A stretch of DNA of 64,000 bases from an uncultured Bacteroidales bacterium. GTDB lineage: Bacteria > Bacteroidota > Bacteroidia > Bacteroidales > Bacteroidaceae. This document shows, piece after piece, positions 2,916 to 64,000 of the stretch. Both the position numbers and the translations under genes were made by a program. The DNA is taken from positions 12,579 through 76,578 of the forward strand of contig CADBWR010000005.1 in assembly GCA_902798425.1 (NCBI GenBank), in the 5' to 3' direction. The notes below the pieces were generated by a model. That model saw only the letters and a list, made by a program, of their open reading frames with translations, was not told the DNA's origin and searched no databases. How positions within the stretch are numbered: the first letter of the stretch is position 1; every line of letters starts with the position of its first letter.

Positions 2916-4028
2916 CTACTTACTCAGCTGTTCCTCAACAAACTGTTTTAGTGCCTCACCACGCAGACCACGACGAAGGATTGTTCCCTTCTGGTCGACG
3001 ACGATGGTATGAGGGATGGAGGTGATATTGAAAGCCTTTGCCACGTCGTTGTCCCAAAACTTCAAGTCGCTCATCTGAGGCCAAGGCAATTTGAGTGTCT
3101 TGATGGCCGTAACCCACGCATCTTTATTCTTGTCAAGCGAGACTCCTACAATGCCGAGGCCACGATCTTTGCAGCTCTCGTAGAGTGACAGCATGAAAGG
3201 CATCTCCTGACGACAGGGGCCACACCAAGACGCCCAGAAGTCAATGATGGTAATCTTGTTTTTGCTGACCTCCGTCATTATACTGAATGCTTCGTCTTCA
3301 GGTGTGAGTTGCGAGAAGTTGGGGATGGTAGCTCCCTCAGCAGTCTTTGCCGTGCGGCGAATGGCAGCCTCTATTTCCTGAATGGCAGGACGCTGGCGGC
3401 GCTCAGCAGTCAACTTCTCGATGAGCCGCTGGCGGTTCTTGTCGTCAATAACATCTTCAGGATAGTAGGTAAGCACAAAGTAACCGAACTCGTTGTCGAT
3501 GTTCTTTTCAGCTACGTCAATGACAACTTCAGAGAAACGCTTGTTGAGTTTCTCTATCTGTTCCATGCCGCGCTGCTGTTTTTCCTGAGATACGGTGTTG
3601 CCGTAGATATGCTCGGCAATACGGTTGATCTCCCTCCCAATAACCATGACCGAGTCGTTCAGTCGCTGCCACTCATTGTTGCACGGAGTGCCGCTGACAC
3701 GTGATGCCCCGGGGGTGGCTGAAAGGTTGATGGTAATCTCTCCTGCTTCGCGGATAAAGGGGGCGTTGATCTCGTTGTGCTTAGCACTATAGACCATGCA
3801 GAGCGTAGCCTCCTTGTCTTTCTCTATTTCACCTGTGAAACTGAAAGTGTTGCCCTTCAGGATAATGGTGTCGGTAGGGGTGCCGTCGTTCATGTTGTCC
3901 GTCAGCAACAACATGTCACCATCGGCCAATCCCTCGGCAGTACCGATTAGCTTGTAGGTCTGTGACTGACAGCCGGCAAAGAGAATGGCAGTGACACTAC
4001 ACAATATACTGGTCAGAAATGCTCTCAT
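2916..4028 (-). CDS. TlpA-like thiol-disulfide oxidoreductase lipoprotein (thioredoxin fold)
   Basis: FWASWCGPCRQEMP CxxC motif. Internal start MRAFLTSILCSVTAILFAGC has a lipoprotein signal. The longer ORF to 4175 would overlap prs heavily. Confidence 0.85.
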   Translation of the reverse strand: MRAFLTSILCSVTAILFAGCQSQTYKLIGTAEGLADGDMLLLTDNMNDGTPTDTIILKGNTFSFTGEIEKDKEATLCMVYSAKHNEINAPFIREAGEITINLSATPGASRVSGTPCNNEWQRLNDSVMVIGREINRIAEHIYGNTVSQEKQQRGMEQIEKLNKRFSEVVIDVAEKNIDNEFGYFVLTYYPEDVIDDKNRQRLIEKLTAERRQRPAIQEIEAAIRRTAKTAEGATIPNFSQLTPEDEAFSIMTEVSKNKITIIDFWASWCGPCRQEMPFMLSLYESCKDRGLGIVGVSLDKNKDAWVTAIKTLKLPWPQMSDLKFWDNDVAKAFNITSIPHTIVVDQKGTILRRGLRGEALKQFVEEQLSK

Positions 4029-12045: not shown

Positions 12046-12609
12046 ATGGTTTTACCTATTTATATATTAGGACAGCCCGTATTACGAAAAGTGGCTGAAG
12101 ATATTCCTACCGACTACCCCGATCTGGATCAGTTCTTGAAAGATATGTGGGACACACTGGCTGAGAGTGAAGGCATCGGATTGGCAGCCCCCCAGGTGGG
12201 TAGGTCTATCCGTGTAGTTGTTATAGATCTTGATGTACTCAGCGACGATATGCCAGAATACAAGGACTTCCGCCATGTATATATCAATCCCCATATCGTA
12301 GAGTATGACGATAGCGAGACAGATTCTTTAGAGGAAGGTTGTCTCTCGCTCCCCGCCATTCATGAGAAAGTGACGCGTCCCAAGCGCATCCATGTACAGT
12401 GGCTCGATGAGAAGATGCAGCCCCACGACGAATGGGTGGAAGGCTATCTGGCACGTGTCATGCAGCACGAGTTCGACCACTTGGAAGGTAAGGTCTTTAC
12501 TGATCGTGTATCCCCACTTCGTAAACAACTGATCAAGAGCAAATTGAAAGCACTTCTTCAGGGTCGTTATCGCTGTGGTTACAAGACAAAGGCAGCTCCT
12601 AAAAAGTGA
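12046..12609 (+). CDS. def: peptide deformylase
   Basis: GIGLAAPQVG, EGCLSLP, HEFDHLEG motifs. Confidence 0.95.
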   Translation: MVLPIYILGQPVLRKVAEDIPTDYPDLDQFLKDMWDTLAESEGIGLAAPQVGRSIRVVVIDLDVLSDDMPEYKDFRHVYINPHIVEYDDSETDSLEEGCLSLPAIHEKVTRPKRIHVQWLDEKMQPHDEWVEGYLARVMQHEFDHLEGKVFTDRVSPLRKQLIKSKLKALLQGRYRCGYKTKAAPKK

Positions 12610-50399: not shown

Positions 50400-51752
50400 A
50401 TGTCTGTAAGATTTTTCCTCGATAAGACTCGAATAAAGAAACACGGTGACGGTGCTGTCAATGTCAGGTGTGCTATTTGCATTAAAGGCAAGCGCCTTAC
50501 TACTACAGCCGGTTTCTCTATCCTTCCAGAACTCTGGGATCAGGAAAACCAGAAAGTTAGGTTATCAACACCCAATGGTAAGTCCGTTGTAATTGACGGC
50601 CTGACAGCGAGAGATCTTAATAGCCGTCTTAAGAAGATAGACAGCTATTTTTCCGATTATGAAGCTGAACTCAAACGAAAAAACGAACCGGTCGGAGATC
50701 TCAAAGAATTGTTTGGGAAGGAATTCGGCAAGAAATCGCCAGATATCCCCGCAGAGGAAGAAACGGAAGCGCCGGACATACGTGATTATCTGAAGGCGTT
50801 TCTGGAGGAACAAAGCGATAAAAACAAGTGGCGCACCCTGACAGTAAGGAGTATGGACTCTTTCAAAAGTCATATGGAAGACTTTTTCAACCATGACAAA
50901 ATAACCTCAATCGACTATTTTGACGAGGACGGTACCACCCGGTTTGTCAATTTCCTCATCGATGATAAATGCTTACGCAATTCCACTATCGAAAAGTACA
51001 CCAGCAGACTGCGCTACTTTATCAGATGGGCAGGCAAGAAAGGCTATACAAGCCTAAAAGCCGATTATAAGCCACGCCTCCAGAAAACTAAGAAGCCAAT
51101 TGTCTTCCTGGACTGGAACGATCTCATGAAGCTCCTGAATTACGAGTTTCCTGAAATAGGAACTGAGATTGAACTGGAGGATGTCCACGGAAACCAGTAC
51201 AAAAAGAAAGTCAGTATTGAGAAGGACACTGCAGAACGAATACGCGATGCGTTCTGTTTCTGTTGCTTTACCTCGTTACGGTATTCAGACCTTAAACGGT
51301 TGCAGCGAACAAACATCTTCGGTAAGTACATTCTACTAACGACGAAAAAAGATACCGACTCGGTAAAAATCGAATTAAACAAGTATTCAAAGGCCCTCCT
51401 CGATAAATATCGTGACGAATCTTTTCCAGACAATGCCCCACTCCCTGTTATCAGTGAGCAGCGCATGAACGAACATTTGAAGCTTATTGGTGAAATGTGC
51501 GGCTTCAACGATCCTGTTCACATCACTTACTTCAGGGGAAGCGAACGAGTTGACGAAGTCTATGAAAAATGGAAGCTGATGACCACGCATGTTGGCAGAA
51601 AGACTTTTATCTGTAATTCACTTATGCTTGGTATCGCGCCGCAGATTGTCATGAAGTGGACAGGACATAGCGATTATGCTGCCATGAAGCCCTATATTGA
51701 GATTGCAGATAAGGCAAAAGAGGATGCTATGTCCTTGTTTGACGCAAAATAA
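50400..51752 (+). CDS. int: tyrosine-type site-specific integrase
   Basis: C-terminal catalytic region (FTSLRYSDL, HVGRKTF, WTGHSDYAAMKPYIE) and N-terminal arm-binding-type domain. TAaaTTTG and TAatTTTG boxes upstream. Confidence 0.9.
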   Translation: MSVRFFLDKTRIKKHGDGAVNVRCAICIKGKRLTTTAGFSILPELWDQENQKVRLSTPNGKSVVIDGLTARDLNSRLKKIDSYFSDYEAELKRKNEPVGDLKELFGKEFGKKSPDIPAEEETEAPDIRDYLKAFLEEQSDKNKWRTLTVRSMDSFKSHMEDFFNHDKITSIDYFDEDGTTRFVNFLIDDKCLRNSTIEKYTSRLRYFIRWAGKKGYTSLKADYKPRLQKTKKPIVFLDWNDLMKLLNYEFPEIGTEIELEDVHGNQYKKKVSIEKDTAERIRDAFCFCCFTSLRYSDLKRLQRTNIFGKYILLTTKKDTDSVKIELNKYSKALLDKYRDESFPDNAPLPVISEQRMNEHLKLIGEMCGFNDPVHITYFRGSERVDEVYEKWKLMTTHVGRKTFICNSLMLGIAPQIVMKWTGHSDYAAMKPYIEIADKAKEDAMSLFDAK

Positions 51753-51954
51753 AGCCCTCTGACGGCTTTTTGTTACTTCTGACGTGTAGTTGCCCGCCAA
51801 GTATACAAAAACGCCACAGAAGGCCTAAAATGTGCAAAATTATAAACATTTTTGCTATTTGCATGACTGAATAGTTCAAAGACATAAAATACTGAATGCC
51901 TTGAACTTATTATTTTTATGTTTTCAAACAAAGTAACACTTTTTGTCAAAATAT

Positions 51955-52370
51955 TGTAAACATGTATACATGTAAACATTGTTAGCAAAAAGAAATTTAA
52001 TGAGCAAAAACCTCCTTAAATAGGCATTTTTTTATGTGTACATTTTAAACATGTGGACATGTCAACACGATTAAAACGCCAACACTACTGCAAGAGGATT
52101 ATTAAAACCAGGTACAAAATATCAGGCATAATTAATGATCGTCTATCGGTTCTCCTGTAAAGTTTCACTGATACACGGGACTGATGCCCAATATTTTGAC
52201 CAGCTTAACCTGGATATTTGAATAATTTAAAAATGTACGCACGTACACATGTGTACATATTTATAAAGTATACACGTATTCATGTATGACATGCGGACAT
52301 GAAATATTGTATAAAAGAATACATGTTTACAATGTAATCATGAATACAATGTCTAACTGTCTTCATGAAT
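51955..52370. repeat. array of ACATGT-centred palindromes/half-sites
   Basis: Six exact ACATGT (51960, 51968, 52049, 52057, 52247, 52321) plus five further CATG. Perfect 14-bp palindromes ACATGTATACATGT (51960-51973) and GTACACATGTGTAC (52243-52256). Confidence 0.8.
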
Positions 52371-52513
52371 ACAACTTTTATCTTACCTTCATCAGTTTTA
52401 CTTTTATAGAAATCCACCAAATAACCGTTATATGGTAGGTTTTCGGTTTTACGTATGCCTTTCAGCAGACTTGTGTTCACTTTCTCTATCTGACTGTGAG
52501 AGGGTTCTACCAT
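52280..52513 (-). CDS. hypothetical small protein
   Basis: 77-aa ORF. Its 3' third is encoded by the ACATGT repeat array, so the real extent is uncertain. Confidence 0.4.
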   Translation of the reverse strand: MVEPSHSQIEKVNTSLLKGIRKTENLPYNGYLVDFYKSKTDEGKIKVVFMKTVRHCIHDYIVNMYSFIQYFMSACHT

Positions 52514-52686
52514 CCTGAATAGTCGAGCTGACTCCTCTCACCCTGTGTTATCTGTAACCTATTCTGGACGCAGTCCTTCTCTCCACCGGCATTACCGTTG
52601 ATAGAGCATATTTCTTTACCATTCGTCGTTTGACACTTTATATCGTTTTCCACCCCACTTCGTTTCAAAAACTTTTCCTTTTCCAT
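52507..52686 (-). CDS. hypothetical 59-aa protein (below ORF-track cutoff)
   Basis: Hand translation gives MEKEKFLKRSGVENDIKCQTTNGKEICSINGNAGGEKDCVQNRLQITQGERSQLDYSGW. Its TAG overlaps the ATG of 52280..52513 (ATGGTAG). Confidence 0.3.
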   Translation of the reverse strand: MEKEKFLKRSGVENDIKCQTTNGKEICSINGNAGGEKDCVQNRLQITQGERSQLDYSGW

Positions 52687-53063
52687 GTTTCACCAACAGT
52701 CTATCTTTTGGGATGACAGCCTAAAGTATGACACGTGTTCTGGCGTTGCTCTCAAAGCTGTCTGCATACGGCCTGTCCATCTTATCAAGATTGGTATTCA
52801 CTTTTATTTTTCTGGGTGAGCGTGACTTATTTTTCCGTTGCGAATTTAGCACCAGCGCCATTTGGCAAGTACCAGTCGTAAACCTCCTTATCCCTGCAGA
52901 AAATTCTCAGCAGCCTTCCGCATTTTCTTCTTAACGGACAAGTCCTAAAGGAAATGGGGTATTCCGTGAATTTTCCTTAGTATTCCTTGACCGTTGCATG
53001 TCTTCTTCTGGTTTGCTTTGTTTTGCACGTAAAAATTAAGTTTCACTCTAAAAAATAAAAATT

Positions 53064-53387
53064 ATGAATACCTTCAATGATTTTCAGATTACAGCTCGTC
53101 TCACTGCAGATGCTAAGATTACCAAGTTCCAGAACACTTCAGTTGCTCGCTTCGGCGTAGCTGTCACCCGTACGGAGAATGTAAACGGTGAGGAAAAGAA
53201 GGTCGTAGGTTTTATGAATCTCGAGGCATGGCGTAAAAATGAAAAAGTTTCAGACTTCGATAGTTTGAAGAAAGGTCAATATCTTTTCATCCATGGAGTG
53301 TTTAAACCAGTGGAATACGAAAAGGACGGTGTCAAGCACCATGTGATAATCCTTACGGCCAGCAGCTGGGAAGCCCCCTTTGACTAA
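53064..53387 (+). CDS. ssb: single-stranded DNA-binding protein-like (OB fold)
   Basis: ARLTADAKI...ARFGVAV...FMNLEAWRK...LKKGQYLFIHG pattern of SSB OB folds. Short protein ending in PFD. Confidence 0.7.
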   Translation: MNTFNDFQITARLTADAKITKFQNTSVARFGVAVTRTENVNGEEKKVVGFMNLEAWRKNEKVSDFDSLKKGQYLFIHGVFKPVEYEKDGVKHHVIILTASSWEAPFD

Positions 53388-53395
53388 TACAATCC

Positions 53396-53420
53396 GGAGG
53401 GTAAGCGAACCCTCCTTTTT
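53396..53420 (+). terminator. intrinsic terminator after ssb
   Basis: GGAGGG-taagcgaa-CCCTCC followed by TTTTT. Confidence 0.7.
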
Positions 53421-53439
53421 AACTCATAAGATGCAAACA

Positions 53440-54640
53440 TAAAATACTTTGCATGAAAGGGGCCAGATGTGAATCTCGCCCTTTTTTTCCATGTTTCTGA
53501 ATTTGTCAGGTTTTTGTCAGAAACAGCCGTTTTCTGGGTATACTCTCGAAAAACGACCTCACAGGAAGCCCCAGGAGGGCATAATGGACAGTCGGTGAGG
53601 TAATTATACCTCCTAAAATCGGGCGAAACGAAAAATATTGACACCCGATTTTCGTATCATATCTGCTTACCTCTGTATCATTTTTGATACATAAATCCAT
53701 CAGCCGTGCATACTCACTCTCGGTACTGCCCCATTGACGGACTCGGCCCACTCCTGGCAGCATGCTAAAGCACTATCCCTGTTCACTCCTGGCAGCTCAT
53801 GGAGCTTTGGTCGCCAACATGGATGGTACGTCAGCAGCTTTGGTCGCCGTCCGTTGTCTGTCAGTGTGGCCGCTGGGTCGCCAGTACTTCTTTCTGATGT
53901 GAATCTACACTTCCGCTTGCATCCGACACCGCTATTGGCTCTTAATCTGCCTGAAAGTTCATGAATATCTCTCTTCGGGGGTTCCGGCTCGACGGACACC
54001 ATTCTGCTCTGCAACCGTAGAGTAACGTCACGTCCTGATAGCGGACGGCGGTCTGCTCTGTTAAGGGAGAATGTGCCTGGTACAGTCACACACACCCTGA
54101 ACAGTGGTTCATACATCTTCATTCCTCGATGTCTGCACCACCGCAAAACGCTGTCTGCTGGCCGTAACATCACACTCCTTATTGCTGGGCTGAATGGCTA
54201 TTCCTGTTTGTCACCCTACCTTGCGAGATGTCCACGGACTTTCCTGTCAGGATCCACTGGTGACAGCCGGATGCAGCTTACTGAAGAAAACCGTCAATGC
54301 TTGACGGAACCCCAAACGGGATGAGAAGTCTTTTCTGATTTATCTTCGTCCTTTCCAGTATGCTATTTTCACCTCATGGGGTTAGCTGAGTTTTCGATGG
54401 AGTCTTTTTCCTTGCAAAGGTAGGACAACCCGGGGAAACACCAATAAACAAGCCGATGGTTCTGGGACAAATTTTCCGGCAGCCTTCCACAGATTGTGCC
54501 AATCTGGGTATTCCATAAAATTTCTCGCAGAATTTCTTGGCTTATCCCCCTTGAAAGTTGATCCTGATAACCTGGCAAGAAAAAGGACTCAAAACTCAAC
54601 TAAGTCGATGACGACTGAAAATTGAAAGCACACCGGCAGA
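53440..54640. other. about 1.2 kb ORF-free, GC-rich, repeat- and hairpin-rich segment (candidate large structured RNA or ssDNA regulatory element)
   Basis: Only short overlapping Arg-rich ORFs on both strands. Hand-counted 60-nt lines reach 63% GC against about 42% in the relaxase gene. Exact 13-nt direct repeats CACTCCTGGCAGC (x2) and AGCTTTGGTCGCC (x2). Many 6-9 bp hairpins. Confidence 0.4.
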
Positions 54641-54686
54641 CTTGATAAGAAAAAACTTCAAAAGAAGAAAGGATCTAAAATCTAAC

Positions 54687-54971
54687 ATGCCGATAACTTC
54701 AACAACAGCGTCAGAAACAATACTAACTATAACCGATGCCGACGGAATACAAACAGGCAGCAAAGATATGAAACAGACAGTTGAAAGATTGCAGAAGATT
54801 GAGAACCAAATGGAGACAATCGGCGAGAACATCCGCAAGGAAGGCCAAGTGTACCGTGCCGAACTGGAGGAACGCCAACGTCTGGGCCTCCATGGGGAAG
54901 CAGCCATCAAGCACTACAATGAATGGATGAAGAAATACGGTATGGGGCACTTAATGGTTAAGGAGGACTGA
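54687..54971 (+). CDS. hypothetical coiled-coil protein
   Basis: First gene of a tightly packed plus-strand operon. Helical, charged sequence. Confidence 0.55.
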   Translation: MPITSTTASETILTITDADGIQTGSKDMKQTVERLQKIENQMETIGENIRKEGQVYRAELEERQRLGLHGEAAIKHYNEWMKKYGMGHLMVKED

Positions 54972-54973
54972 TT

Positions 54974-55198
54974 ATGACACCGGAAGAGTATATTGAAAAG
55001 CTGAAGGAGGTGCAGCGCACCCTTGACAGTGTAAAGGAAGATCTTGACCGTGCCATCGACAGGATGCAGCGACGTATCGAGACGGGTTATGAACATCTGG
55101 AGAAAGATAGCCGTCTGGCAGCTCTGGCGGGACGTGAATACGTGAAGATGGCTGACAGTACACTTCTGGAAGTAGGAACAGCTAAAATAGAATACTGA
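54974..55198 (+). CDS. hypothetical coiled-coil protein
   Basis: Starts 2 nt after the previous stop. Helical, charged sequence. Confidence 0.55.
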   Translation: MTPEEYIEKLKEVQRTLDSVKEDLDRAIDRMQRRIETGYEHLEKDSRLAALAGREYVKMADSTLLEVGTAKIEY

Positions 55199-55199
55199 T

Positions 55200-55322
55200 A
55201 TGGGACATTTAACAGATTTTGAACTGATACTCGTTGGAGTGTGTATCACTCTTTTCTGCTTCGGCTTCAATGCCTTTATCAAGAATGTATATCTGAAGGG
55301 CTTTAATTCTTCTAAGTTATGA
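55200..55322 (+). CDS. 40-aa single-TM micro-protein (below ORF-track cutoff)
   Basis: Hand translation gives MGHLTDFELILVGVCITLFCFGFNAFIKNVYLKGFNSSKL. ATG lies 1 nt after the previous stop, and its TGA overlaps the next ATG (ATGA). Confidence 0.4.
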   Translation: MGHLTDFELILVGVCITLFCFGFNAFIKNVYLKGFNSSKL

Positions 55323-55597
55323 TTACTGCTTATGGACAGGAAAGGGCTGTCGGGGAAGTCTGGATAGACACCATCGACGGAGCCAAGGTTATCACCGTTG
55401 CCGATGATGGGTGCAAGGACTGTGCTTTTGCCACTCATGCCGGTGGTGCCTGCCCAGGAACTATATACGACCGCCATCCCTGCAGTGCTACAGACCGCAA
55501 AGATGGACAGGACGTATATTTCAAATTGATACATTATGTTCCGGAGGCTAAAGCACCGGTACTGAGGATGACACCATTTGGCATCTTACATCTTTAA
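55319..55597 (+). CDS. hypothetical Cys-rich small protein
   Basis: 92-aa ORF with five Cys, coupled to neighbours. Confidence 0.5.
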   Translation: MITAYGQERAVGEVWIDTIDGAKVITVADDGCKDCAFATHAGGACPGTIYDRHPCSATDRKDGQDVYFKLIHYVPEAKAPVLRMTPFGILHL

Positions 55598-55608
55598 TGC
55601 TTTAAACT

Positions 55609-55707
55609 ATGAACAGGACGGTGAATATAGTGTTGCTGTGGACTACAAGCCTTGCGCTTGTGGCAGATCTTTTGTTCGTGGCCTATCTGATGATGGGTAT
55701 GATGTAA
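55609..55707 (+). CDS. 32-aa single-TM micro-protein (below ORF-track cutoff)
   Basis: Hand translation gives MNRTVNIVLLWTTSLALVADLLFVAYLMMGMM. Fills the gap before the HNH gene. Confidence 0.3.
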   Translation: MNRTVNIVLLWTTSLALVADLLFVAYLMMGMM

Positions 55708-55719
55708 TTACGGACCGAT

Positions 55720-56019
55720 ATGGCAAAGAAACACTCTATCCTTAACAAGACAGCAGGACACTGCGCCTATTGCGGATGCACCCTCAATGTGCAGAATATG
55801 ACCCGAGACCATGTTGTGGCCAAGTCACGGGGCGGTACCAGTGATATCGACAACCTTATGCCTGCCTGCAGATCATGTAATCTCCTAAAAGGGGATGACA
55901 CCTTGGACTCTTTCCGGCTTCGGTTCTTCTGGGACACCCTGCACCCGTCAGACCTTGTCACATACGACTCCATGGTAAAGGCCATTTCTAAGAAGAAATT
56001 CTACTTTGAGGGTCGTTAG
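55720..56019 (+). CDS. small HNH endonuclease
   Basis: CAYCG...DHVVAKSRGG...NLMPACRSCNLLKG (CxxC...H-N-N/H...CxxC). Confidence 0.85.
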   Translation: MAKKHSILNKTAGHCAYCGCTLNVQNMTRDHVVAKSRGGTSDIDNLMPACRSCNLLKGDDTLDSFRLRFFWDTLHPSDLVTYDSMVKAISKKKFYFEGR

Positions 56020-56054
56020 GTTGACCGCCGTCCGCTATGTCGCGCGCAGCTTCC

Positions 56055-57254
56055 CTACGGTCGCTGCCTCCTGATCACTCCAGCCTTATACTTGCTATCG
56101 ATGGTCGGATTCTCAAATGTGCCTGGTGCGTAGTACTGACAGTCACATGATACATACTTCCTGCCTATCTGACTGGTGTGCTCTGCCATCTGATGGCCAC
56201 ACGAAGGACATTCATGCTTCACTCTGATTAAATAGAGCTGGTCTGATTCGTTCAATGGCTCACCTCTTATGATCTTGTTCTGGATGGCGACGTATGTCAT
56301 TCCTGATGACTGCATCGTCATACCTTCCCTCGCTGGTTCCGGTGATGACTCTTCCTGTCCAACCGTTACCTCTCCCTGTGGCTGAACTGTCGGAACAGTT
56401 GTTTCTTCCGTCATGGTGGTCTCACCTTCTTTGGAACTCTCACCAGTTTTCTCTTCCTTGGCGGTCTTCACCTTTGGTTTTGCGTCAGACTTGCGCTTTC
56501 TTGATGCTGGTGCCGTCTGTAGTTTCGCAGTATATTTTTTCCAGACAGCTTCGTAATCGTATGTCTCTGGATTTTTCTCTTTGTCTTTTAAAAAATCCTG
56601 CAGAACCTTAATGTCGTTCAGTATTCTCTCCTTCATGCCTTCGTCAACATGAAAATTGGGAATTTGATAAATGAACTCGATAGCCTTTAGAAATTCTTCT
56701 TGTTCTATTTCTTTAGTACCGTTTCCACTTATCCTAATGTTATATTGGCTGTTGTCGATGAGTGGTCGAACATCGCTCCAGTCGCTCAAACCAAACTTTG
56801 TAATCGCTGTTGCAATTTCTTCTGGTATCATATGATCTTCTCCCTGAAGGTCAAGATGCCACATCAGGTGAATACGAGTACATTGTATGCGTGACTTCCG
56901 ACGCTTCAAGATTCTGTTGACGGCATCAATGAGATAAACAGGCTTTGAGTCGGCGGCATTGTTAACAGGTAAGCTCTCCAGATGTTTTTTCCACCGTTCG
57001 CGAAACTGCTCCATGTGTCTTTTATCGACAGGTCGAACAGGAACAGATTTTGGAATGGTAAATCTGTTAATCAACTTTATCAGTTGCTCTATCCTATTAT
57101 CTGGAGCAAGACTTTCTTCGACAGAAATTGCACCCTTCTCTATGAATTTTTCATAGGCACGACTGACAGTCAGCCCACATAACTTTTTCAGATTGTTGAT
57201 AGTGTAGTCTCTTACCTTCTTGTTGCAAGGTATCTTTATTCTTTTTTCTTCCAT
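56055..57254 (-). CDS. hypothetical protein with C-terminal zinc-ribbon, divergent from the mob operon
   Basis: Start at MEEKRIKIP. Low-complexity K/E/T linker. CPSCGHQM...CDCQYY resembles topoisomerase-type C4 ribbons. Function unknown. Confidence 0.65.
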   Translation of the reverse strand: MEEKRIKIPCNKKVRDYTINNLKKLCGLTVSRAYEKFIEKGAISVEESLAPDNRIEQLIKLINRFTIPKSVPVRPVDKRHMEQFRERWKKHLESLPVNNAADSKPVYLIDAVNRILKRRKSRIQCTRIHLMWHLDLQGEDHMIPEEIATAITKFGLSDWSDVRPLIDNSQYNIRISGNGTKEIEQEEFLKAIEFIYQIPNFHVDEGMKERILNDIKVLQDFLKDKEKNPETYDYEAVWKKYTAKLQTAPASRKRKSDAKPKVKTAKEEKTGESSKEGETTMTEETTVPTVQPQGEVTVGQEESSPEPAREGMTMQSSGMTYVAIQNKIIRGEPLNESDQLYLIRVKHECPSCGHQMAEHTSQIGRKYVSCDCQYYAPGTFENPTIDSKYKAGVIRRQRP

Positions 57255-57325
57255 AGTTATACGCTTTTGTTTTTTTTCAACAAAGGTACACATATATATA
57301 TTTATCGCTGAAAAAACAACATAAA

Positions 57326-57590
57326 ATCTCTTGAATTAACCATTTTAAGACTTGGCTTGTCGTAAAATAGTTAATTCAAGAGATAGAAGCTCTATTTTTT
57401 CGAAAAAAAAGAGAGACAAAGTACCTTTGCTGTAACTCAAATGAGTTAGGCGAGTAGTGGCACCATTCCGGAATGTCACACTGACGTGCGAAATTCCGAT
57501 GGTTCCCGACTCGCCCCAGAAGGGGATAGCGCACCCTCTGTATCGGGTGCTTTCTTCATTAACGTTATACGAATTTCTAATATTTAAGAA
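57326..57590 (+). promoter_or_regulatory. candidate oriT / mob promoter and structured leader
   Basis: Perfect 15-bp inverted repeat ATCTCTTGAATTAAC / GTTAATTCAAGAGAT (57326-57340, 57370-57384). TAccTTTG at 57422-57429. 12-bp palindrome CATTCCGGAATG (57464-57475). GCACCC/GGGTGC hairpin plus TTTCTT at 57531-57556. Lies directly upstream of the relaxase operon. Confidence 0.45.
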
Positions 57591-57592
57591 CT

Positions 57593-58309
57593 ATGAACGA
57601 AGGAAATATTATCAATTCTGCGCTTGCTTCTTTGCGCGAAAAGAAGACAGATAGACGCGAAAGAAGAGTAGAGTTCTTGACCCCATCATCCTCCATGAAG
57701 GAGGAAATGATAGCGCGAGCAAACAATGGTTTTGGAAGGCCTGGTTATAGTCTTTCGCGCATGTTACGATACATCTATCTACACATGGATGACGGGTGTG
57801 GTATCGACCTCGACTGCGTTGACGAACTAATAAAAACCATCAAAGATAATCGCTCACAACTCGATAGAATAGACATCTTCTTCGAGGAAATTCTTCGAGA
57901 AACGAACCGTATCGGAAACAACATCAACCAAGTCACTAAACGGGTAAATCTTGAGTCGTTGATTGCCAAGGAAGAGGGTACACCTGAATATGAACTTGGG
58001 AAAAAGTTGCTGGATATGATTAAATATATCCAGTACTATCAGGACGAGTTGCTGGAGAAAATTAGGTCGTTTACTGCTTCAATGACTCTAAATAGAGAGA
58101 CTTTGAAGAACGTGTTAGGTGGTGAAGACGAACTACTGACACGTTGTCTCGTGTTTCCAAATGCTGGCGAAAAAGAACAACAGTATAAAGTCCTTATCAG
58201 AAAGATAAAGGATTATATTGGTGGGAACAAGGAACAATATCATAATATGACTATTGGCCAGCTATTGGCAGAATTGAATGAGAAAATTGAAAGTAAAACA
58301 AAGCAATAA
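57593..58309 (+). CDS. MobC-like relaxosome accessory protein
   Basis: NRIGNNINQVTKRVN matches the MobC-family GxNxNQxA/T+ motif. Precedes the relaxase. Confidence 0.7.
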   Translation: MNEGNIINSALASLREKKTDRRERRVEFLTPSSSMKEEMIARANNGFGRPGYSLSRMLRYIYLHMDDGCGIDLDCVDELIKTIKDNRSQLDRIDIFFEEILRETNRIGNNINQVTKRVNLESLIAKEEGTPEYELGKKLLDMIKYIQYYQDELLEKIRSFTASMTLNRETLKNVLGGEDELLTRCLVFPNAGEKEQQYKVLIRKIKDYIGGNKEQYHNMTIGQLLAELNEKIESKTKQ

Positions 58310-58320
58310 ATATATATAAT

Positions 58321-60897
58321 ATGGAACGTGGAATAGTTAAAATGCTCGGTAACGATGCCACTACGTTTGCGGCATGTTTCTACAACGAAAAGAAGGTGGC
58401 AAAGGGCGAAGCCAAACTCCTTGAAATGCGAAATTTCGGTGACTTGCAGAAGTATGGCATACATACTCCTGTAGTTACAAGTCGTTACCTGAGAAAGATT
58501 GCCGACCAGAATCCGGACGTGAAACATCCTCAGAAACATATTATGTTTTCACTTCCTGGCAAGCCCACGGAAGAGGAAAAACAGCAGCTTGTAGATCATG
58601 CAGTAAAGGTCTTAGATATGCTTGGGTATAAGAACCAGCCTATTCTTGTCTATTCGCACAATGATACTGGCTATTGGCATTTGCATTGCGTCACTGTAAC
58701 AGTGAATCAGACTACTGGTGAATGGATAGACAACTATAAGGAAGGGAGAAAAGCCAGACATTATCTTGATGAACTTCGAGGTGTCAATGCACCTAAGACC
58801 ATCGAAAACTATCTGGACTATAAGTTTTCATCCAAGGAGCAGTTTCTCAGCTTGCTTCGTGCCAATGGCTATCCCAAGTCTTTCTTTGACGACGAACTGG
58901 AAGTCGTTAATGTCGTCCGAAATGGGGACGTTCAACATATCTTCACGTTTCAGGAAATTAGTGAGGCCATCGAAAGGAACAAGAAATATCTGGAAGAGTC
59001 CAAGGATAGGATAAAACAACTTCATAGCATGATTCTTGACAGACGTCAGCGTTCAATGAAGTATCTCGTAGAAGATCCTGACGTGAAGATAACCAAGGAT
59101 GGAAAACGTCATACCGTAACCGAGAGATTACGTGACGTTCGTGGAGCTGCATTCGAGGGTGACAAGGGATTTGGGGAGGAGTATAAGAACCTCACTGGAC
59201 AGGAGGTTAAGGGTATTCGCAAGGCTCAGTTTAAGCAGTTCCTTGAAGAACTGAAAGAACAATTGGGAATATCCATTATCTTTAACCAGTGGAAAGATGG
59301 CAGCACAAGAGGATATACACTAATTGACCATCAAACAAAGTCAGTCTTTAAAGGCTCAGACATCTTACAGCTTGACAAACTGCTGAATCCTGACTGGAAG
59401 AAGGGAACGGAAAAGGACTTAGTTCTATCTGCCGATGAAGCAAACGAAGCCACTCATAAACTGGTCAATTCTCCAACCTTGGCTGAGGATATATACGATG
59501 GTCTGGCTAATATGGGAATAGAAGTTGAAAGGCTGTCGGACTCTGAAATCGAGGATATAGCGATTGAATATCAGGAGGAAGAGGAAAATCGGCGAATGGC
59601 CGTCTCTCTCTTGACAGAGCTGAGGAAGGAGTATACACCAGAAATTTCTGAATATGGGGAAGAATATAAACAGTTATGCGAAAAAGGACAGGATGCCTAT
59701 AATCATGCTTTAGTGGCAGAATATCTACATCAATTGGAACAGAACAACGAACAGGACGAAGATGAAATGAAACTGCGTGACAGAAAAGATTTTGATAGCC
59801 TGAATATAGGTGAATATATAGAGGATGTACTGGAGAGATACAAAATATACGATATAGCTGGCCACTATGAGCTGTCGAAAGAAAACGTTGATGAAAAGAC
59901 TGCTGTTGACAGAGCATATGCAAGCCTACAACTGTCTTTGCAGGCAAATGAAAAAGGTGAAATAGCTGAAGCCCGACAGAAAGCAGAAGAAGCAGTAGCA
60001 TACGCCCGACATGCATATGATTTACATGAGAATCCGAAGCTATTGCAGAGAGAGGATGAGTTGGATGATGGGAGTAAAATGCAATCCAACGAACAGTATG
60101 ATTTCTTTCTGCCATTTGTTGATGTTAAGCCGCATATATATCAATATAAGGGCGAAGCATATATATCAGCAATGATTGACGGCGAACAATATGATGGCCG
60201 GAAGATGAGCAAAGAACATTTCTATCACTATAACTATAGTGAAGAGCAACAAAATGTAGGGATGGCACTTGCCTGGCACTACTTCTCGGATGAAATACAG
60301 GAAAGACAACTCTATAACTGGAAACAAGAGCATTTTAAGGTGGGCAAGATGCCAGAGGGCGTAGAACTTGAATCTGCTAAAGATTACTATGACAACACTT
60401 CTCAATCTTTTTATTGTGCAGCAAATTTTGTTTTCTCCAATGGTGACAAACTGTACAGAAATAGACCCTATACTAAGGAAGAATATCACGAATTAAAGAA
60501 GAATAACTATACGCCAGAACAAATGGCATGTAGAAAATATGGTCCAGAAATTGTCGGGGATTTGGAAGTAACTGATTCTCTGAGTATCAACAGTATCAAA
60601 GGAAGGCTATTTGGAGAGATGGCAGACCCAAATTCATTTAAGGGAATAGAGGAAACGGTGGCAGCTTTCAATGACTTTGCTGGACAATTGTGTGGGAGTT
60701 TTAGCAGGGTATGCGGAGCATTCGCAGATGCATATTTTGAAAGCATCGGTGCTGCAGCTGGTGCTGGACATGGTGGAGGTGGACAGGACACTGGCAGATG
60801 GGATGGTAAGAACAATGATGACGAGAAGAGAAAGCCATTCATCCTTGGACATATTCCCACAAGGAAGTCTGGACGCGGAGGACATGTAGGACATTAA
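58321..60897 (+). CDS. relaxase/mobilization nuclease with long C-terminal extension
   Basis: N-terminal relaxase fold with HNDTGYWHLHCVTVTVN (HxDx3-4HxH...N metal motif) and an N-terminal Tyr region (FYNEKK). Gly-rich basic C-terminus. Confidence 0.85.
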   Translation: MERGIVKMLGNDATTFAACFYNEKKVAKGEAKLLEMRNFGDLQKYGIHTPVVTSRYLRKIADQNPDVKHPQKHIMFSLPGKPTEEEKQQLVDHAVKVLDMLGYKNQPILVYSHNDTGYWHLHCVTVTVNQTTGEWIDNYKEGRKARHYLDELRGVNAPKTIENYLDYKFSSKEQFLSLLRANGYPKSFFDDELEVVNVVRNGDVQHIFTFQEISEAIERNKKYLEESKDRIKQLHSMILDRRQRSMKYLVEDPDVKITKDGKRHTVTERLRDVRGAAFEGDKGFGEEYKNLTGQEVKGIRKAQFKQFLEELKEQLGISIIFNQWKDGSTRGYTLIDHQTKSVFKGSDILQLDKLLNPDWKKGTEKDLVLSADEANEATHKLVNSPTLAEDIYDGLANMGIEVERLSDSEIEDIAIEYQEEEENRRMAVSLLTELRKEYTPEISEYGEEYKQLCEKGQDAYNHALVAEYLHQLEQNNEQDEDEMKLRDRKDFDSLNIGEYIEDVLERYKIYDIAGHYELSKENVDEKTAVDRAYASLQLSLQANEKGEIAEARQKAEEAVAYARHAYDLHENPKLLQREDELDDGSKMQSNEQYDFFLPFVDVKPHIYQYKGEAYISAMIDGEQYDGRKMSKEHFYHYNYSEEQQNVGMALAWHYFSDEIQERQLYNWKQEHFKVGKMPEGVELESAKDYYDNTSQSFYCAANFVFSNGDKLYRNRPYTKEEYHELKKNNYTPEQMACRKYGPEIVGDLEVTDSLSINSIKGRLFGEMADPNSFKGIEETVAAFNDFAGQLCGSFSRVCGAFADAYFESIGAAAGAGHGGGGQDTGRWDGKNNDDEKRKPFILGHIPTRKSGRGGHVGH

Positions 60898-61032
60898 CAA
60901 TAGTTCATACTTGTCTGCCAGTGGTTGGAGAGTGTTAAGAAGTCATAAACAGACAATCCTTCTTGTTTTTAGCATCAAAAAACACGCCAAAAATTTGGTG
61001 GTTTCAGAATTTTTTTCGTACCTTTGCAAATG

Positions 61033-61263
61033 ATATAAGACTGTCAGCACTCCCTAAGAGGTAAAAGGTAAAGGACTACGTAATGTGAAGCCTCGGACGG
61101 TAAAAGGCTGACACCAGCTGGAGAGAGCACTGCTCCTGGCCCGTCATATCAGGGAAACCTCCAAAAGACATACGGACATGTAGCAAGGATTGGAAACTGG
61201 CTACGCTTTCCAAAGGTAAAGTCCGCAGAATATCCATTGATGTGGGTATCCTGCGGGCTTTTT
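61033..61263 (+). ncRNA. candidate about 230-nt structured RNA with its own promoter and terminator
   Basis: TTTG (60994-60997)-N21-TAccTTTG (61019-61026). Several internal stems (TGTCAGC/GCTGACA, AGCCT/AGGCT, TTGGAAA/TTTCCAA). Terminator GTCCGCAG...CTGCGGGC plus TTTTT at 61221-61263. Contains no ORF above the 60-aa cutoff in the transcribed (+) sense; the 66-aa ORF at 61076..61276 is antisense. Confidence 0.45.
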
Positions 61264-61409
61264 GTATGTCTCCCATTCAACTGTGATGCGTCGCGGCTCA
61301 CTGAGAAGATAATAAGAAGATAACTGCCATTCCGGCTCCGAGGTTCCGCGACACCTCGCCCGGGGTGGCATTATTGAAGTTGCACACGACACGAAGTAGT
61401 GTATTAGTA

Positions 61410-61739
61410 ATGATGACTTACAAAGAGACTAAAGAAATGGGGTGTACAGATATTGTGTATTGGAAATCTGAACCTCAGACAAACCCTAAGACAGGCAACG
61501 AGTTCTTCACTCCAGAGGATGCCAAGAGCCTCTTCGTTAAGCTTAAAGAAGAACATGCTAAAGAGATAGAAGAGGAACTTAATGATATCATCTTTAAACA
61601 CAATATTAGTGAGGATGAAGATGAGTTCGATGCAGAGTATTACTGGAAGATAGATAACTATATCTGGGAAGATGCTGCAAATCTCGATGACCTAATACAG
61701 GAAGAAGAAAACCACCCTGATTGGGTGTGTCATTCTTAA
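61410..61739 (+). CDS. highly acidic hypothetical protein
   Basis: 109 aa from MMTYKETKE. By hand count about 30 D/E against 10 K and no R. Confidence 0.55.
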   Translation: MMTYKETKEMGCTDIVYWKSEPQTNPKTGNEFFTPEDAKSLFVKLKEEHAKEIEEELNDIIFKHNISEDEDEFDAEYYWKIDNYIWEDAANLDDLIQEEENHPDWVCHS

Positions 61740-61744
61740 CAATA

Positions 61745-62240
61745 AGGCGCTCTTTGAAAGACTGAACGATATTGGGGAATGCGGCACTCGAGCCATGGGA
61801 GAAGCGGGAGGCGGTCACGGCGGCCTCGGTAGGACCGGCCCATGAGCGTAGCGGTTCCCCATCTTCTGGTACTCTTAATACCTGCGCCTTTGAGCGTGTC
61901 GGCATTAGCCATCCTGTTGTTAAGTACCAGATTTCGCCTGGCATGACAGTGTGGGAAGCCTTGGGCATAAGAAGGTACAGGTGCGTCCCCCTTTGCAGTA
62001 AAGCCCATGAGCGACACTGTGCCAGGCCCCCAAACAGGACGGACGCAATAGTCCTGAAGCTGCACACTGCCGGACGGAGCAGTTCCGAGCATCCCGGTTC
62101 TTCCGTTGAAGACAACTCAGACAGGAGTGCAGCATTTTGGGAGGAGTTGCGGGAACGGGTTTCATCGACGCGTTCACTTAGACCAGCCTCCCATTTGCCG
62201 AGCGGCTGGTTATCGATGGTGGCAGCTCTTTCAAGAGATT
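61745..62240. other. about 0.5 kb ORF-free, very GC-rich segment (candidate structured RNA)
   Basis: Line 61801-61860 is 44/60 G+C. Only overlapping nonsense ORFs on both strands. Ends can pair (GCTCTTTGAAAG at 61749 with CTTTCAAGAG at 62228). GCCCATGAGCG occurs twice. Confidence 0.4.
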
Positions 62241-62273
62241 CTTTATTTATTAACTTTTTAAATACAAACAATT

Positions 62274-62783
62274 ATGAAAAAGAACATTTTAGCGAAATTG
62301 ATGATGGTGGCCATGGTAGCCACAATGTGCATGACATTCACAGCCTGTGGCGGTGACAGTGATGATGACGACCTTAATAACGGTATGTCCGGCAGCACCA
62401 CGACATGGGTGGAGCCATACCTCCGTTGGGATGCTACCCTCGACCAGATCAAGGCCGACATGGCCACTCAGGGCTGGACGGCACAGGTTAGCGAAGGGAA
62501 CATCCTGCAGTTTGGCAACAACAGCAGATATCCTGGTGTCACGATGACGATGGGCGTGCTGAATAGCAGAACCAATACGCTGAGCACGACACAGGTGGCC
62601 TATATGAATGTCCCATCAGACTTTTTTAACAAGATCCTGAGTGAGGTGGTGACCCGCTATAATGCGACTTGGGAGAGTACTGGTCGGATATACTCTGGCA
62701 AGGGTGTCGCCAACGATAAGGATGTGTCGATTACCGTCACCAATGCCGCCAGTACCGTCCTCGTACAGTTCGTGAGACGCTAA
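62274..62783 (+). CDS. hypothetical lipoprotein
   Basis: MKKNILAKLMMVAMVATMCMTFTACGG lipobox followed by an acidic linker. Confidence 0.65.
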   Translation: MKKNILAKLMMVAMVATMCMTFTACGGDSDDDDLNNGMSGSTTTWVEPYLRWDATLDQIKADMATQGWTAQVSEGNILQFGNNSRYPGVTMTMGVLNSRTNTLSTTQVAYMNVPSDFFNKILSEVVTRYNATWESTGRIYSGKGVANDKDVSITVTNAASTVLVQFVRR

Positions 62784-62799
62784 CCGCCGTCCATTAGTT

Positions 62800-63186
62800 A
62801 TGAAAGCAACATTTGACGTAACAATCAAGATCGACAACAGAAATGTCGAGACATCCTTCGGAATGAAGGAGGGCGCACAGGATGTAGATGCCAATCTGAC
62901 GGGACTGGTACTGAAAATCATCACCAATGCCCAGAAGGAGTTGAAGGAGCAGTTTGACCGCTACTATGGTGTAACTACCGATGCGCCTTCACAGGAGTTG
63001 CTGCAGCAGCTCTACGATGGAAAGCTGACGCATCTGGAGTACGTCCAGAGGTCAGTAGAGTACCAGGAACCCTTCCGGCAGTTCTGCTTGGATCATCAGC
63101 TGCAGGAAAGCGACCGTGCTGCCCAGCAGTTCTTGGACAGCCTGCTGAAGGAAGAGGAGTCCGCTCATACTGACGGGCTGGATTGA
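62800..63186 (+). CDS. hypothetical protein
   Basis: 128-aa ORF, same strand as and close to its neighbours. Confidence 0.5.
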   Translation: MKATFDVTIKIDNRNVETSFGMKEGAQDVDANLTGLVLKIITNAQKELKEQFDRYYGVTTDAPSQELLQQLYDGKLTHLEYVQRSVEYQEPFRQFCLDHQLQESDRAAQQFLDSLLKEEESAHTDGLD

Positions 63187-63207
63187 CGAAATATCAATTT
63201 AATTAGA

Positions 63208-63444
63208 ATGATTATGGCAAAAGAATTAGATCAGCAGGAATTGGCAAAACAGGACACAGTCCTACTGCCTGGAGTATCTGAATATCGAAAAAATATTCAG
63301 GAGTGCATCAATAACCTTGGCGAAGTGCTCAATGAATTTGTGGTTAAGGAATCACTCAATAACCCAAATACGCTTGAATGGATGTCAAGGTATGTCGCTG
63401 AAACCAGAATGTTTCTTTCGACTCTTAAAAGTGACCTGAGCTAA
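63208..63444 (+). CDS. hypothetical small protein
   Basis: 78-aa helical ORF, followed by a terminator. Confidence 0.5.
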   Translation: MIMAKELDQQELAKQDTVLLPGVSEYRKNIQECINNLGEVLNEFVVKESLNNPNTLEWMSRYVAETRMFLSTLKSDLS

Positions 63445-63483
63445 GGCAATAATAACCAGGCACTACAAGATGCATATAATTAC

Positions 63484-63518
63484 GAGCTGCTACCCATCAC
63501 GGATAGCAGCTCTTTCTT
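63484..63518 (+). terminator. intrinsic terminator
   Basis: GAGCTGCTA-cccatcacgga-TAGCAGCTC followed by TTTCTT. Confidence 0.65.
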
Positions 63519-63602
63519 CGCCAAATCAATATCCACCAGTCACAGCAGAACTGGTGCAAAGATACTCATTTTTACCGATGCCGTCCAACTATGTTACTAC
63601 TC

Positions 63603-64000
63603 TTAGTTGTATTTCCTGTTAGTGCCTAACATGTCGTGAATATCGTATATGTGTTGTTCCTGAAGGAAAGTGTTTCCTCCACGTTCAACAGCTGCTTTCA
63701 GCAGGTTTGCCACCTCCCATCGGTCTGTAAATTGTGCCGATGGATGGCCTTCTATAATGTCATAAACAGCCTTTATCGACCAATAGAATGTCGACAGATA
63801 ACAGTCATGAGGAATGAAATTCACATCCTTCAGCTCACAATCCCCTGCGAACACCACAAGTGAATACATGGGCAGTGTTGCCATCTGCGGTGACAGTCTG
63901 CGAAGAGCCTTAATGTGGCCCTCGTTCTGCTTGAATGGGTTATAAAATCGGTTCCGATATTTTCCATATCCAGACACCTGTGTCCAGTAGTCTTGATTTC
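63603..64000 (-). CDS. NERD-domain-like protein, C-terminal part (gene continues past the right edge)
   Basis: The frame stays open upstream of the listed start (NQDYWTQVSGYGKYRNRFYNPFKQNEGHIKALRRL). The NPxxQxxxHxxxL pattern is typical of NERD nuclease-related domains. Confidence 0.6.
   Translation of the reverse strand, partial: NQDYWTQVSGYGKYRNRFYNPFKQNEGHIKALRRLSPQMATLPMYSLVVFAGDCELKDVNFIPHDCYLSTFYWSIKAVYDIIEGHPSAQFTDRWEVANLLKAAVERGGNTFLQEQHIYDIHDMLGTNRKYN

Follow-up and report, generated by a model that had tools for sequence, protein, structure and literature searches.

Frpo/ssi promoters, described from enterobacterial conjugative plasmids, are non-coding elements of leading regions, a few hundred nucleotides (nt) in length, whose transferred strand folds into a large stem-loop and thereby rebuilds the promoter boxes of the host. 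They are found in several copies per element, ahead of ssb and further early genes for which the transferred strand is the template, and are expected to lose their activity toward these genes as soon as the DNA becomes double-stranded (PMC9849209, PMC11541004, PMC12672017). In the F plasmid, the leading genes are transcribed toward the origin of transfer (oriT) with the transferred strand as template, and Frpo elements precede ssb (PMC9849209, PMC11541004). Six single-stranded DNA (ssDNA) promoters, representing newly described non-homologous classes, are known from pESBL, and Frpo also primes DNA synthesis (PMC12672017). Published searches used the consensus TTGACA/TATAAT, without mention of Bacteroidota (PMC11541004). 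Single-strand promoters explain the expression of SSB, anti-restriction and anti-CRISPR proteins within minutes of the entry of a conjugative plasmid. All those defined to date are from Proteobacteria and have sigma-70 boxes. Bacteroidales, which dominate gene exchange in gut and rumen, possess a different primary sigma factor, and literature searches produced no description of single-strand promoters in Bacteroidota. The subject of the present analysis is a non-coding region of an uncultured Bacteroidales bacterium (assembly GCA_902798425.1, contig CADBWR010000005.1), situated at 53388-54690 of a stretch of 64,000 nt (positions 12,579 to 76,578 of the contig), which is called the window in the following.

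The region lies between ssb and an operon of small open reading frames (ORFs) ending with an HNH endonuclease, in what is most likely a Bacteroidales integrative mobilizable or conjugative element, with the hairpin array described here in its leading, i.e., first-transferred, region. Three long hairpins, A, B and C, are present, and a diverged paralogue of C, designated C', is located directly upstream of ssb. On the grounds of motif, stem position, strand asymmetry and gene context, C and C' are regarded here, with modest confidence, as Frpo/ssi-like ssDNA promoters adapted to sigma-ABfr, the primary sigma factor of Bacteroidetes, and as members of an array of leading-region hairpins.

Like the Frpo/ssi elements (Frpo1/2 of F, ssi1-3 of ColIb-P9, classes 1-3 of pESBL), C is a large stem-loop of one strand with host-type boxes in its stem, probably in a leading region, and like Frpo1/2 and the pESBL promoters it occurs in several copies per element. 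Unlike them, C shows no sequence similarity (the only plasmid match is Prevotella pE2-28), and its boxes are those of Bacteroidetes (-33 TTG, -7 TAnnTTTG), whereas a sigma-70 scan (TTGACA/TATAAT) finds nothing in C. Further differences are the host phylum, Bacteroidota, the integrative and mobilizable nature of the elements, and a weaker predicted hairpin energy. With no homology and with boxes for another sigma factor, C stands outside the Frpo sequence family, but by analogy it plausibly works like a Frpo element.

Hairpin C, its paralogue and the promoter motif in the stem

The approximately 300 nt before the operon were revealed as a repeated element by a match to a Prevotella plasmid and by the diverged copy upstream of ssb. 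A blastn comparison (word size 11) of 53400-54700 with 72,556 plasmids, including IncF and IncI, gave pE2-28 of Prevotella as the sole match, confined to module C (Table 1); a phage BLAST of the region gave no matches, and pattern scans of viral contigs for modules B and C found nothing. In metagenome contigs, module C was detected by pattern scan in 92 stretches from at least 80 loci; nhmmer recovered about 110 copies, the 63 distinct full-length sequences forming 32 clusters of less than 95% identity. Two or three full copies are present on some contigs, for example in loci L065 (3845, 9116) and L070 (3326, 8597), about 5.3 kb apart, and contig Ga0310695_10000696 (L028, L039, L074) also carries multiple full copies.

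As ssDNA, module C is predicted to fold with a free energy (dG) of -46 to -54 kcal/mol and z-scores of -5.2 to -5.4, and 0 of 200 shuffled sequences were as stable; the copy in the window (dG -46.4, z -5.4) matches its own reverse complement at E=3e-13. For C' the values are dG -33.3 and z -2.4. A consensus of 98 pairs was derived from per-copy base-pair probabilities and scored on 32 copies less than 95% identical. Paired cells amounted to 79.2%, versus 69.3 ± 0.4% in shuffled alignments and 41-48% when partners were slid; changes on both sides occurred in 59 of the 98 pairs (46.3 ± 2.5 shuffled, 35-46 slid), and the covariation score was 0.297 (0.145 shuffled, 0.09-0.12 slid). The corresponding C' alignment (A10) showed 84.3% paired cells versus 78.9% after shuffling, and 20 pairs changed on both sides. 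RNAalifold alone reported for C pairs such as CG16/UA13/AU4; run on MAFFT alignments, it recovered no more than the distal third of C, as each arm had been aligned independently of the other. Global identity of arm against arm within and between copies was weakly discriminating (0.67 vs 0.58-0.60).

The stem contains, on the minus strand, TTG-N19-TACCTTTG, a perfect match to the -33/-7 consensus (TTG/TAnnTTTG) of sigma-ABfr (PMC7366714). The first-pass annotation, which had noted no consensus promoter ahead of the operon, was correct as far as a sigma-70 scan is concerned, but missed this perfect Bacteroidetes-type promoter on the opposite strand (54444-54415). It is also present in copies which were found independently (L001, L015, L017, L018, and the second copy of L042, 1313-1635). 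The -33 TTG is base-paired in 26-31 of 32 copies, while the -7 box occupies an internal loop that is partly open: two T's are never paired and their neighbours are paired in 9-22 of 32 copies; next to it is an invariant 5-bp clamp, GCAAG/CTTGC. We interpret a duplex -33 box together with a pre-melted -7 box as the look to be expected of a promoter built from one strand. The C' copies of other loci carry TTG-N17-TAnnTT(T/C)G in 11 of 11 cases, and the variable "nn" is as expected of a -7 box. In 49 C copies, the stretch from -200 to +475 relative to the motif is free of plus-strand TAnnTTTG, and in this window no plus-strand promoter precedes the region.

Which strand folds was examined by aligning the two arms of each C copy with a score for Watson-Crick matches only. 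Among the mismatch cells, written in plus-strand letters, A.C (i.e., G.T on the minus strand) outnumbered G.T by 181 to 58; as columns, the ratio was 51 to 26 for any occurrence, and 14 to 2 for at least 5 occurrences. The minus strand is thus indicated as the folding strand of C, since neither a plus-strand RNA nor a symmetric duplex site would predict this asymmetry, whereas a folded minus strand does. The boxes are then on the 3' arm of the minus-strand hairpin and read toward its base.

With respect to gene context, the ORF that comes first on the plus strand behind a copy of C or C' most commonly encodes SSB (17 of 137); RnlB antitoxin, HNH and YAcAr proteins and many small unknown proteins also occur. 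Wherever a relaxase was detectable, it was co-oriented and 3-4 kb beyond C; two families were represented, a PF03432-type (32-45% identity) and Mob_Pre. This arrangement corresponds to the layout of F, R388 and RP4, in which the transferred strand serves as the template of the leading genes (PMC9849209, PMC11541004). Judged from the orientation of the relaxase, the minus strand would be the transferred strand here.

The following course of events would be consistent with the favoured explanation. The minus strand would enter the recipient single-stranded, 5' end first from an oriT near mobC, such that each gene block arrives just before its promoter. Folding into the long hairpins at C and C' would offer the primary sigma factor of Bacteroidetes a -33 TTG restored as duplex and a -7 TAnnTTTG that is partly melted. 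RNA polymerase could then run down the stem onto a single-stranded template, i.e., the 5' arm and the ssDNA 5' of it, and produce plus-sense mRNA before a complementary strand exists: from C that of the operon of small ORFs and HNH (start near 54580), from C' that of ssb. Expression would be transient, because in double-stranded DNA the boxes point leftward, away from these genes.

Two other observations concern hairpin C. The motifs GGAATACCC and GGAAGGCTGC flank the apical stem (54476-54520; columns 113-160 of alignment A5), are invariant in C and C' and are not complementary to each other; the conserved asymmetric internal loop which they form could be a site of protein recognition. In locus L019, genes with DUF4134, which are Tra-like genes of Bacteroides conjugative transposons (1-2565), begin immediately to the left of a C copy (2967-3260) and are read leftwards, and the duplex form of the C promoter could also serve this leftward tra operon.

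Modules A and B in a mosaic region

The lack of credible ORFs reported for the region was confirmed. The longest ORF has 157 amino acids (aa; minus strand, 53700-54173), the others have 86 aa or fewer, and for no ORF in the region was a Pfam match at E<0.1 obtained. Fourteen homologues from ruminant-gut Bacteroidales elements (67-85% identity), aligned over the whole region, differ in strand, frame and extent of their longest ORFs; their substitutions are even across codon positions, with no codon periodicity, and their indels are mostly of 1-2 nt. A decayed pseudogene or hidden gene was rejected on account of the missing Pfam signal, the shifting ORFs and the missing periodicity. The GC-richness turned out to be real, but moderate (about 10 percentage points) and restricted to the core: 43.8% in the element (50400-64000), 48.2% in the region, 53.7% in the core (53700-54300) and 65% in the top 60-nt window.

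Strong structure, which had been suspected, is borne out by fold z-scores of the region of -4.6 (plus strand) and -6.5 (minus strand) as RNA and by helices backed by covariation among the homologues. A sliding ssDNA fold with 300 nt did not single out the region, because the fixed window cuts its hairpins. By eye, neither RNase P, tmRNA, group II intron domain V nor a riboswitch core had been recognised, and no known RNA was found with Rfam 15, including GOLLD, ROOL, OLE and HEARO: at the gathering score, there were no hits in the entire 64 kb, and with a permissive threshold (E<=10) the best hits of the region (E=1.3-9) were chance-level matches to unrelated families, none of them a riboswitch or leader family. 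The region shares with GOLLD, ROOL, OLE and HEARO (omega RNA) its length, lack of ORFs, high degree of structure and, as is often the case, location on a mobile element, and HEARO is HNH-associated; it differs by rod-like hairpins with almost only Watson-Crick pairs instead of multi-junction folds, and by modules which are independently present or absent. The HNH protein here is, unlike that of HEARO, a free-standing protein of 99 aa and not IscB.

The 1.2 kb had been described as one segment. Comparison of related loci did not sustain this view and showed instead a mosaic of hairpin modules (M1, M2, A, B and C), gained and lost independently. Thus, L002 and L082 contain M1 and A; L017 part of M2, then A and C; L060 contains M1, B and C; L015 and L042 contain A, B and C, with no ssb; and L018 and L001 contain C alone. 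M2 is absent from L002, L082 and L060. The four local stems which had been listed, GTTTCTGA/TCAGAAAC, ACCTCAC/GTGAGGT, AAAATCGGG/CCCGATTTT and GTATCA/TGATAC, do exist and are within M2.

Compensatory changes support all three long hairpins. For A and B together, 181 pairs were predicted on both strands and compared in the 14 homologues: 91.8% of cells were paired, versus 83.4 ± 0.4% in shuffled alignments and about 38% with slid partners; 58 pairs changed on both sides, and 220 compensatory cells were counted versus 83 ± 7 in shuffles. In hairpin B (as ssDNA dG -64.7, z -3.5), many pairs of helices 9-21 have changes on both sides. Wobble pairs were scarce: in modules A and B they made up 1.6% (plus strand) and 2.9% (minus strand) of cells, and further pair types were fewer than in shuffles; because G.U-type pairs are so rare, A and B fit DNA hairpins better than RNA.

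Both pairs of exact 13-nt repeats noticed previously were verified, CACTCCTGGCAGC at 53749 (given before as 53748, 1 nt off) and 53784, and AGCTTTGGTCGCC at 53803 and 53836. About 0.01 exact 13-mer pairs are expected per 1.2 kb, and no further exact copies of either are present in the 64 kb. Both pairs are contained in hairpin A, where each CACTCCTGGCAGC is opposite an AGCTTTGGTCGCC, with AGC:GCT pairs as the connection. What had been noted as "direct repeats" thus amounts to two equivalent rungs of the hairpin, 33-35 nt apart; the rung motif is semi-conserved among the homologues.

In the related element L002, the 2181 bp between the two copies of the repeat CGCCGTCCG are missing (53854-56025). 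A mobile HNH cassette inserted in the window, or a segment able to invert, was considered and rejected, since most homologues keep an intact order A-B-C. The gap is read here as a microhomology deletion in L002, because hairpin A, complete in most homologues, is cut short at its junction. A 16-mer, GACCGCCGTCCGCTAT, immediately after the HNH stop codon (56023-56038), has an exact inverted copy in the left arm of hairpin B (54038-54053), and its 9-nt core is the direct repeat at the L002 junction; the two copies could pair across 2 kb in ssDNA.

As to what A and B do, a comparison may be made with the single-strand origins (sso) known from rolling-circle plasmids and from ICEBs1 (sso1). These are structured, non-coding, orientation-dependent, active only when single-stranded, and recruit RNA polymerase for the priming of the complementary strand; they matter for establishment after conjugation. 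By analogy, A and B would fit a role in complementary-strand priming, although B, with 360 nt, is larger than typical sso elements, and no sso consensus motifs were found, in the absence of a search for them. To judge mainly by association, A and B probably act on the transferred strand, e.g., as an sso-like priming site or as a protein-binding structure; this is the weakest part of the explanation.

A wider proposal is offered tentatively, as possible rather than probable: elements of Bacteroidota would have their own, undescribed class of sigma-ABfr single-strand promoters for the zygotic expression of ssb and of a large set of small unknown early proteins, A and B would be new elements of the transferred strand (e.g., a single-strand origin), and the 1.2 kb would represent an "establishment cassette" of DNA structures. 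The hairpin family, present ahead of ssb and dozens of small genes of unknown function in at least 80 loci, would provide a sequence handle on leading regions and on early and anti-defence genes of Bacteroidales elements, and it would predict the transferred strand. The promoter reading is directly testable, since the cultured Prevotella plasmid pE2-28 carries a C copy. The finding also illustrates that a long structured stretch without ORFs on a mobile element does not necessarily represent an RNA.

Weighing of the explanations

The first-pass annotation had left open whether the region is a giant structured leader, a large non-coding RNA (ncRNA) of its own or an ssDNA-active element. The last of these fits C best, with its host-type promoter in a conserved hairpin, ssb-type genes downstream and a co-oriented relaxase; the plus-strand leader does not agree with the mismatch asymmetry and the lack of a preceding plus-strand promoter, and a minus-strand ncRNA over A and B persists as a rival.

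Several points weigh against the promoter reading. The invariance of CTTGCAAAGGTAGG across the 80 loci was imposed by the search pattern. With a cruder alignment, the asymmetry in C shrinks to 212 versus 143 cells. The predicted energy of hairpin C (-46 to -54) is weaker than the cut-off of -75 kcal/mol for enterobacterial ssDNA promoters. The assignment of the transferred strand depends on the relaxase orientation only; some relaxase families, e.g., NicK of ICEBs1, transfer their own gene first, and an alignment of different elements in the part upstream of mobC did not reveal the nick site. As to A and B, no promoter consensus could be recognised within them, their wobble asymmetry is weak, leaning to the minus strand (70 versus 39 cells), and hairpin A as DNA (dG -25.5, z only -0.7) is thermodynamically not exceptional. 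In the subfamily of the window (12 of 49 copies), TATCTTTG is also present on the minus strand at 54764-54757, from where transcription could extend across C. Finally, the C promoter in its double-stranded form is a perfect leftward promoter, from which an RNA of the minus strand, extending over B and A, could simply be transcribed.

The last point leads to the strongest competitor, which is still considered unlikely: the duplex promoter would fire leftwards, and an RNA of about 0.5-0.7 kb would fold into the B rod and the A hairpin and act as a regulator, as antisense RNA or as a processing substrate. The consensus promoter is of the double-strand type and aimed at B and A, the minus strand folds better as RNA than the plus strand, the wobble bias in A and B leans the same way, and in this window a terminator-like hairpin with a T run is present on the minus strand (54307-54291). 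Yet in homologues this hairpin is not followed by a T run, and such an RNA would include only part of one arm of C, so that the covariation in C would be unexplained. Many C copies have no A or B on their left and abut plus-strand genes instead; G.U-type pairs, at less than 3% of cells and with a count of further pair types below that of shuffles, would be unusually rare for RNA; and no Rfam family matches.

Conservation of the hairpins as duplex inverted repeats, i.e., as regulator sites or operators, cruciforms, oriT or recombination sites, appears improbable. The elements are indeed long inverted repeats, GGAATACCC and GGAAGGCTGC in the apical part are invariant, and a deletion junction falls on short repeats (53845, 54038, 56023). 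Duplex palindromes should, however, be devoid of the observed asymmetry between G.T and A.C; two or three copies per element at 3-4 kb from the relaxase are unlike an oriT, for which the segment 57301-57600 next to mobC (z -5.0) is a better candidate; and for the L002 junction, a microhomology deletion that truncated hairpin A is the simplest account.

Very improbable is a plus-strand RNA, either a giant leader or a stand-alone ncRNA, extending from just after ssb through A, B and C into the operon. The plus strand, too, folds well as RNA (z -4.6), and a TATCTTTG box occurs on the plus strand of seven homologues at the site corresponding to 53447, but in the window this box is degenerate and a hairpin with T run follows directly. 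Mismatches which would be G.U in a plus-strand RNA are 2-7 times rarer than the reverse class, the modules come and go independently, and no riboswitch or leader family matches. A selfish palindromic repeat, resembling miniature inverted-repeat transposable elements, or a decayed pseudogene, either being functionless for the element, could account for the many copies on many contigs and for the long spurious ORFs, but is scarcely credible in view of the fixed orientation relative to downstream genes and relaxase, the compensatory changes along the entire stem, the conserved embedded promoter, and the lack of any protein-like signal.

Features of the element and minor observations

Near-identical copies of the element were found on about two dozen metagenome contigs, and its ssb occurs at 96% identity in a metagenome-assembled genome of a rumen Bacteroidales. 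The coordinates of all features are collected in Table 1.

Table 1. Hairpins, modules, promoter motifs and genes of the Bacteroidales element, with positions in the window.
Feature	Position	Strand	Remarks
Mobile element	50400-64000		right end of window; range used for GC
Tyrosine integrase	50400-51752		
Hairpin C'	52806-53060	-	diverged paralogue of C, directly upstream of ssb
Promoter-like motif of C'	TTG 52868-52866; TAAATTCG 52848-52841	-	17-nt spacer
ssb	53064-53387	+	SSB of 107 aa, PF00436
Hairpin after ssb	53396-53415	+	intrinsic-terminator-like, then T run
Module M1	53388-53487		ssb terminator and second hairpin
M1 hairpin GGGCCAGATGTGAATCTCGCCC	53459-53482		then T run; kept in all homologues reaching it; helix 1, 100% paired
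Module M2	53488-53711		small stems, variable block
Module A	53711-53886		
Hairpin A	53729-53869	-	~140 nt, ~39 pairs, apex near 53800; helices 5-8, 83-98% paired, 11 pairs changed on both sides
Direct repeat CGCCGTCCG, 9 bp	53845-53853 and 56026-56034	+ (first copy)	
Module B	53887-54365		GC-rich core
Hairpin B	53915-54277	-	rod-like, ~360 nt, ~110 pairs, forked tip (54058-54104, 54105-54140); helices 9-21, 86-100% paired
Small hairpin CCGTCAATGCTTGACGG	54291-54307		conserved; helix 22; terminator-like on minus strand in this window only
Left flank of module C	54325-54373		highly conserved; found also in loci without A and B
Module C	54366-54690		
Hairpin C	54374-54611	-	imperfect, ~240 nt; apex 54490-54506 (CAGATTG-TGC-CAATCTG)
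Bacteroidetes-type promoter	-33 TTG 54444-54442; -7 TACCTTTG 54422-54415	-	19-nt spacer; within C stem
Predicted RNA start	54578-54584	+	plus-sense RNA, if the folded minus strand fires; estimated from hairpin geometry
Small hairpin AGTCGATGACGACT	54603-54616		conserved, base of module C; helix 1; CGATG core invariant
Operon of small ORFs	54687 (or 54769)-56019	+	last ORF: HNH endonuclease of 99 aa
Gene of 399-412 aa		-	
MobC-like gene	57593		
MobA/VirD2-type relaxase	58321-60897		

The segment 57301-57600 is likely to be the oriT. After correction for GC it is the most structured ssDNA window of the 64 kb (dG -60.6), and it holds an inverted repeat of 26 nt (57326-57384). On the minus strand, GCACCC...GGGTGC followed by GCGCTATCCCC resembles an arrangement of inverted repeat and nick in oriTs of the MOBQ/P type, with no nick site established.

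In module M1, the plus-strand box TATCTTTG of the seven homologues is a perfect -7 box, directly after the ssb terminator and directly before the M1 hairpin and T run (alignment A6, columns ~17-27); its counterpart in the window is TACTTTG, with a 1-nt deletion (53446-53452). A promoter box with a terminator-like hairpin immediately after it is an odd arrangement.

Further TACCTTTG boxes face mobC (57424-57431, plus strand) and the 399-aa gene (57283-57290, minus strand), which suggests that ordinary double-strand promoters of the element make use of this -7 sequence, too. The ORF call of 412 aa probably starts too early; gene callers give 399 aa.

The first protein of the operon (54687-54971) has 175 homologues, most of them with 67 or 90 aa and aligning only from residue 28 on. 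Because of this 67-aa core, the start is probably the ATG at 54769, in which case the untranslated stretch after hairpin C may grow to about 190 nt. In L022-L027, homologues of this protein are found in the middle of operons and were uninformative; in three of these loci (L023, L025 and L026, positions 1-900), a Cas9-like protein of 1220 aa (HNH_4, RuvC_III) is encoded a few kb upstream of the small-ORF operon homologues.

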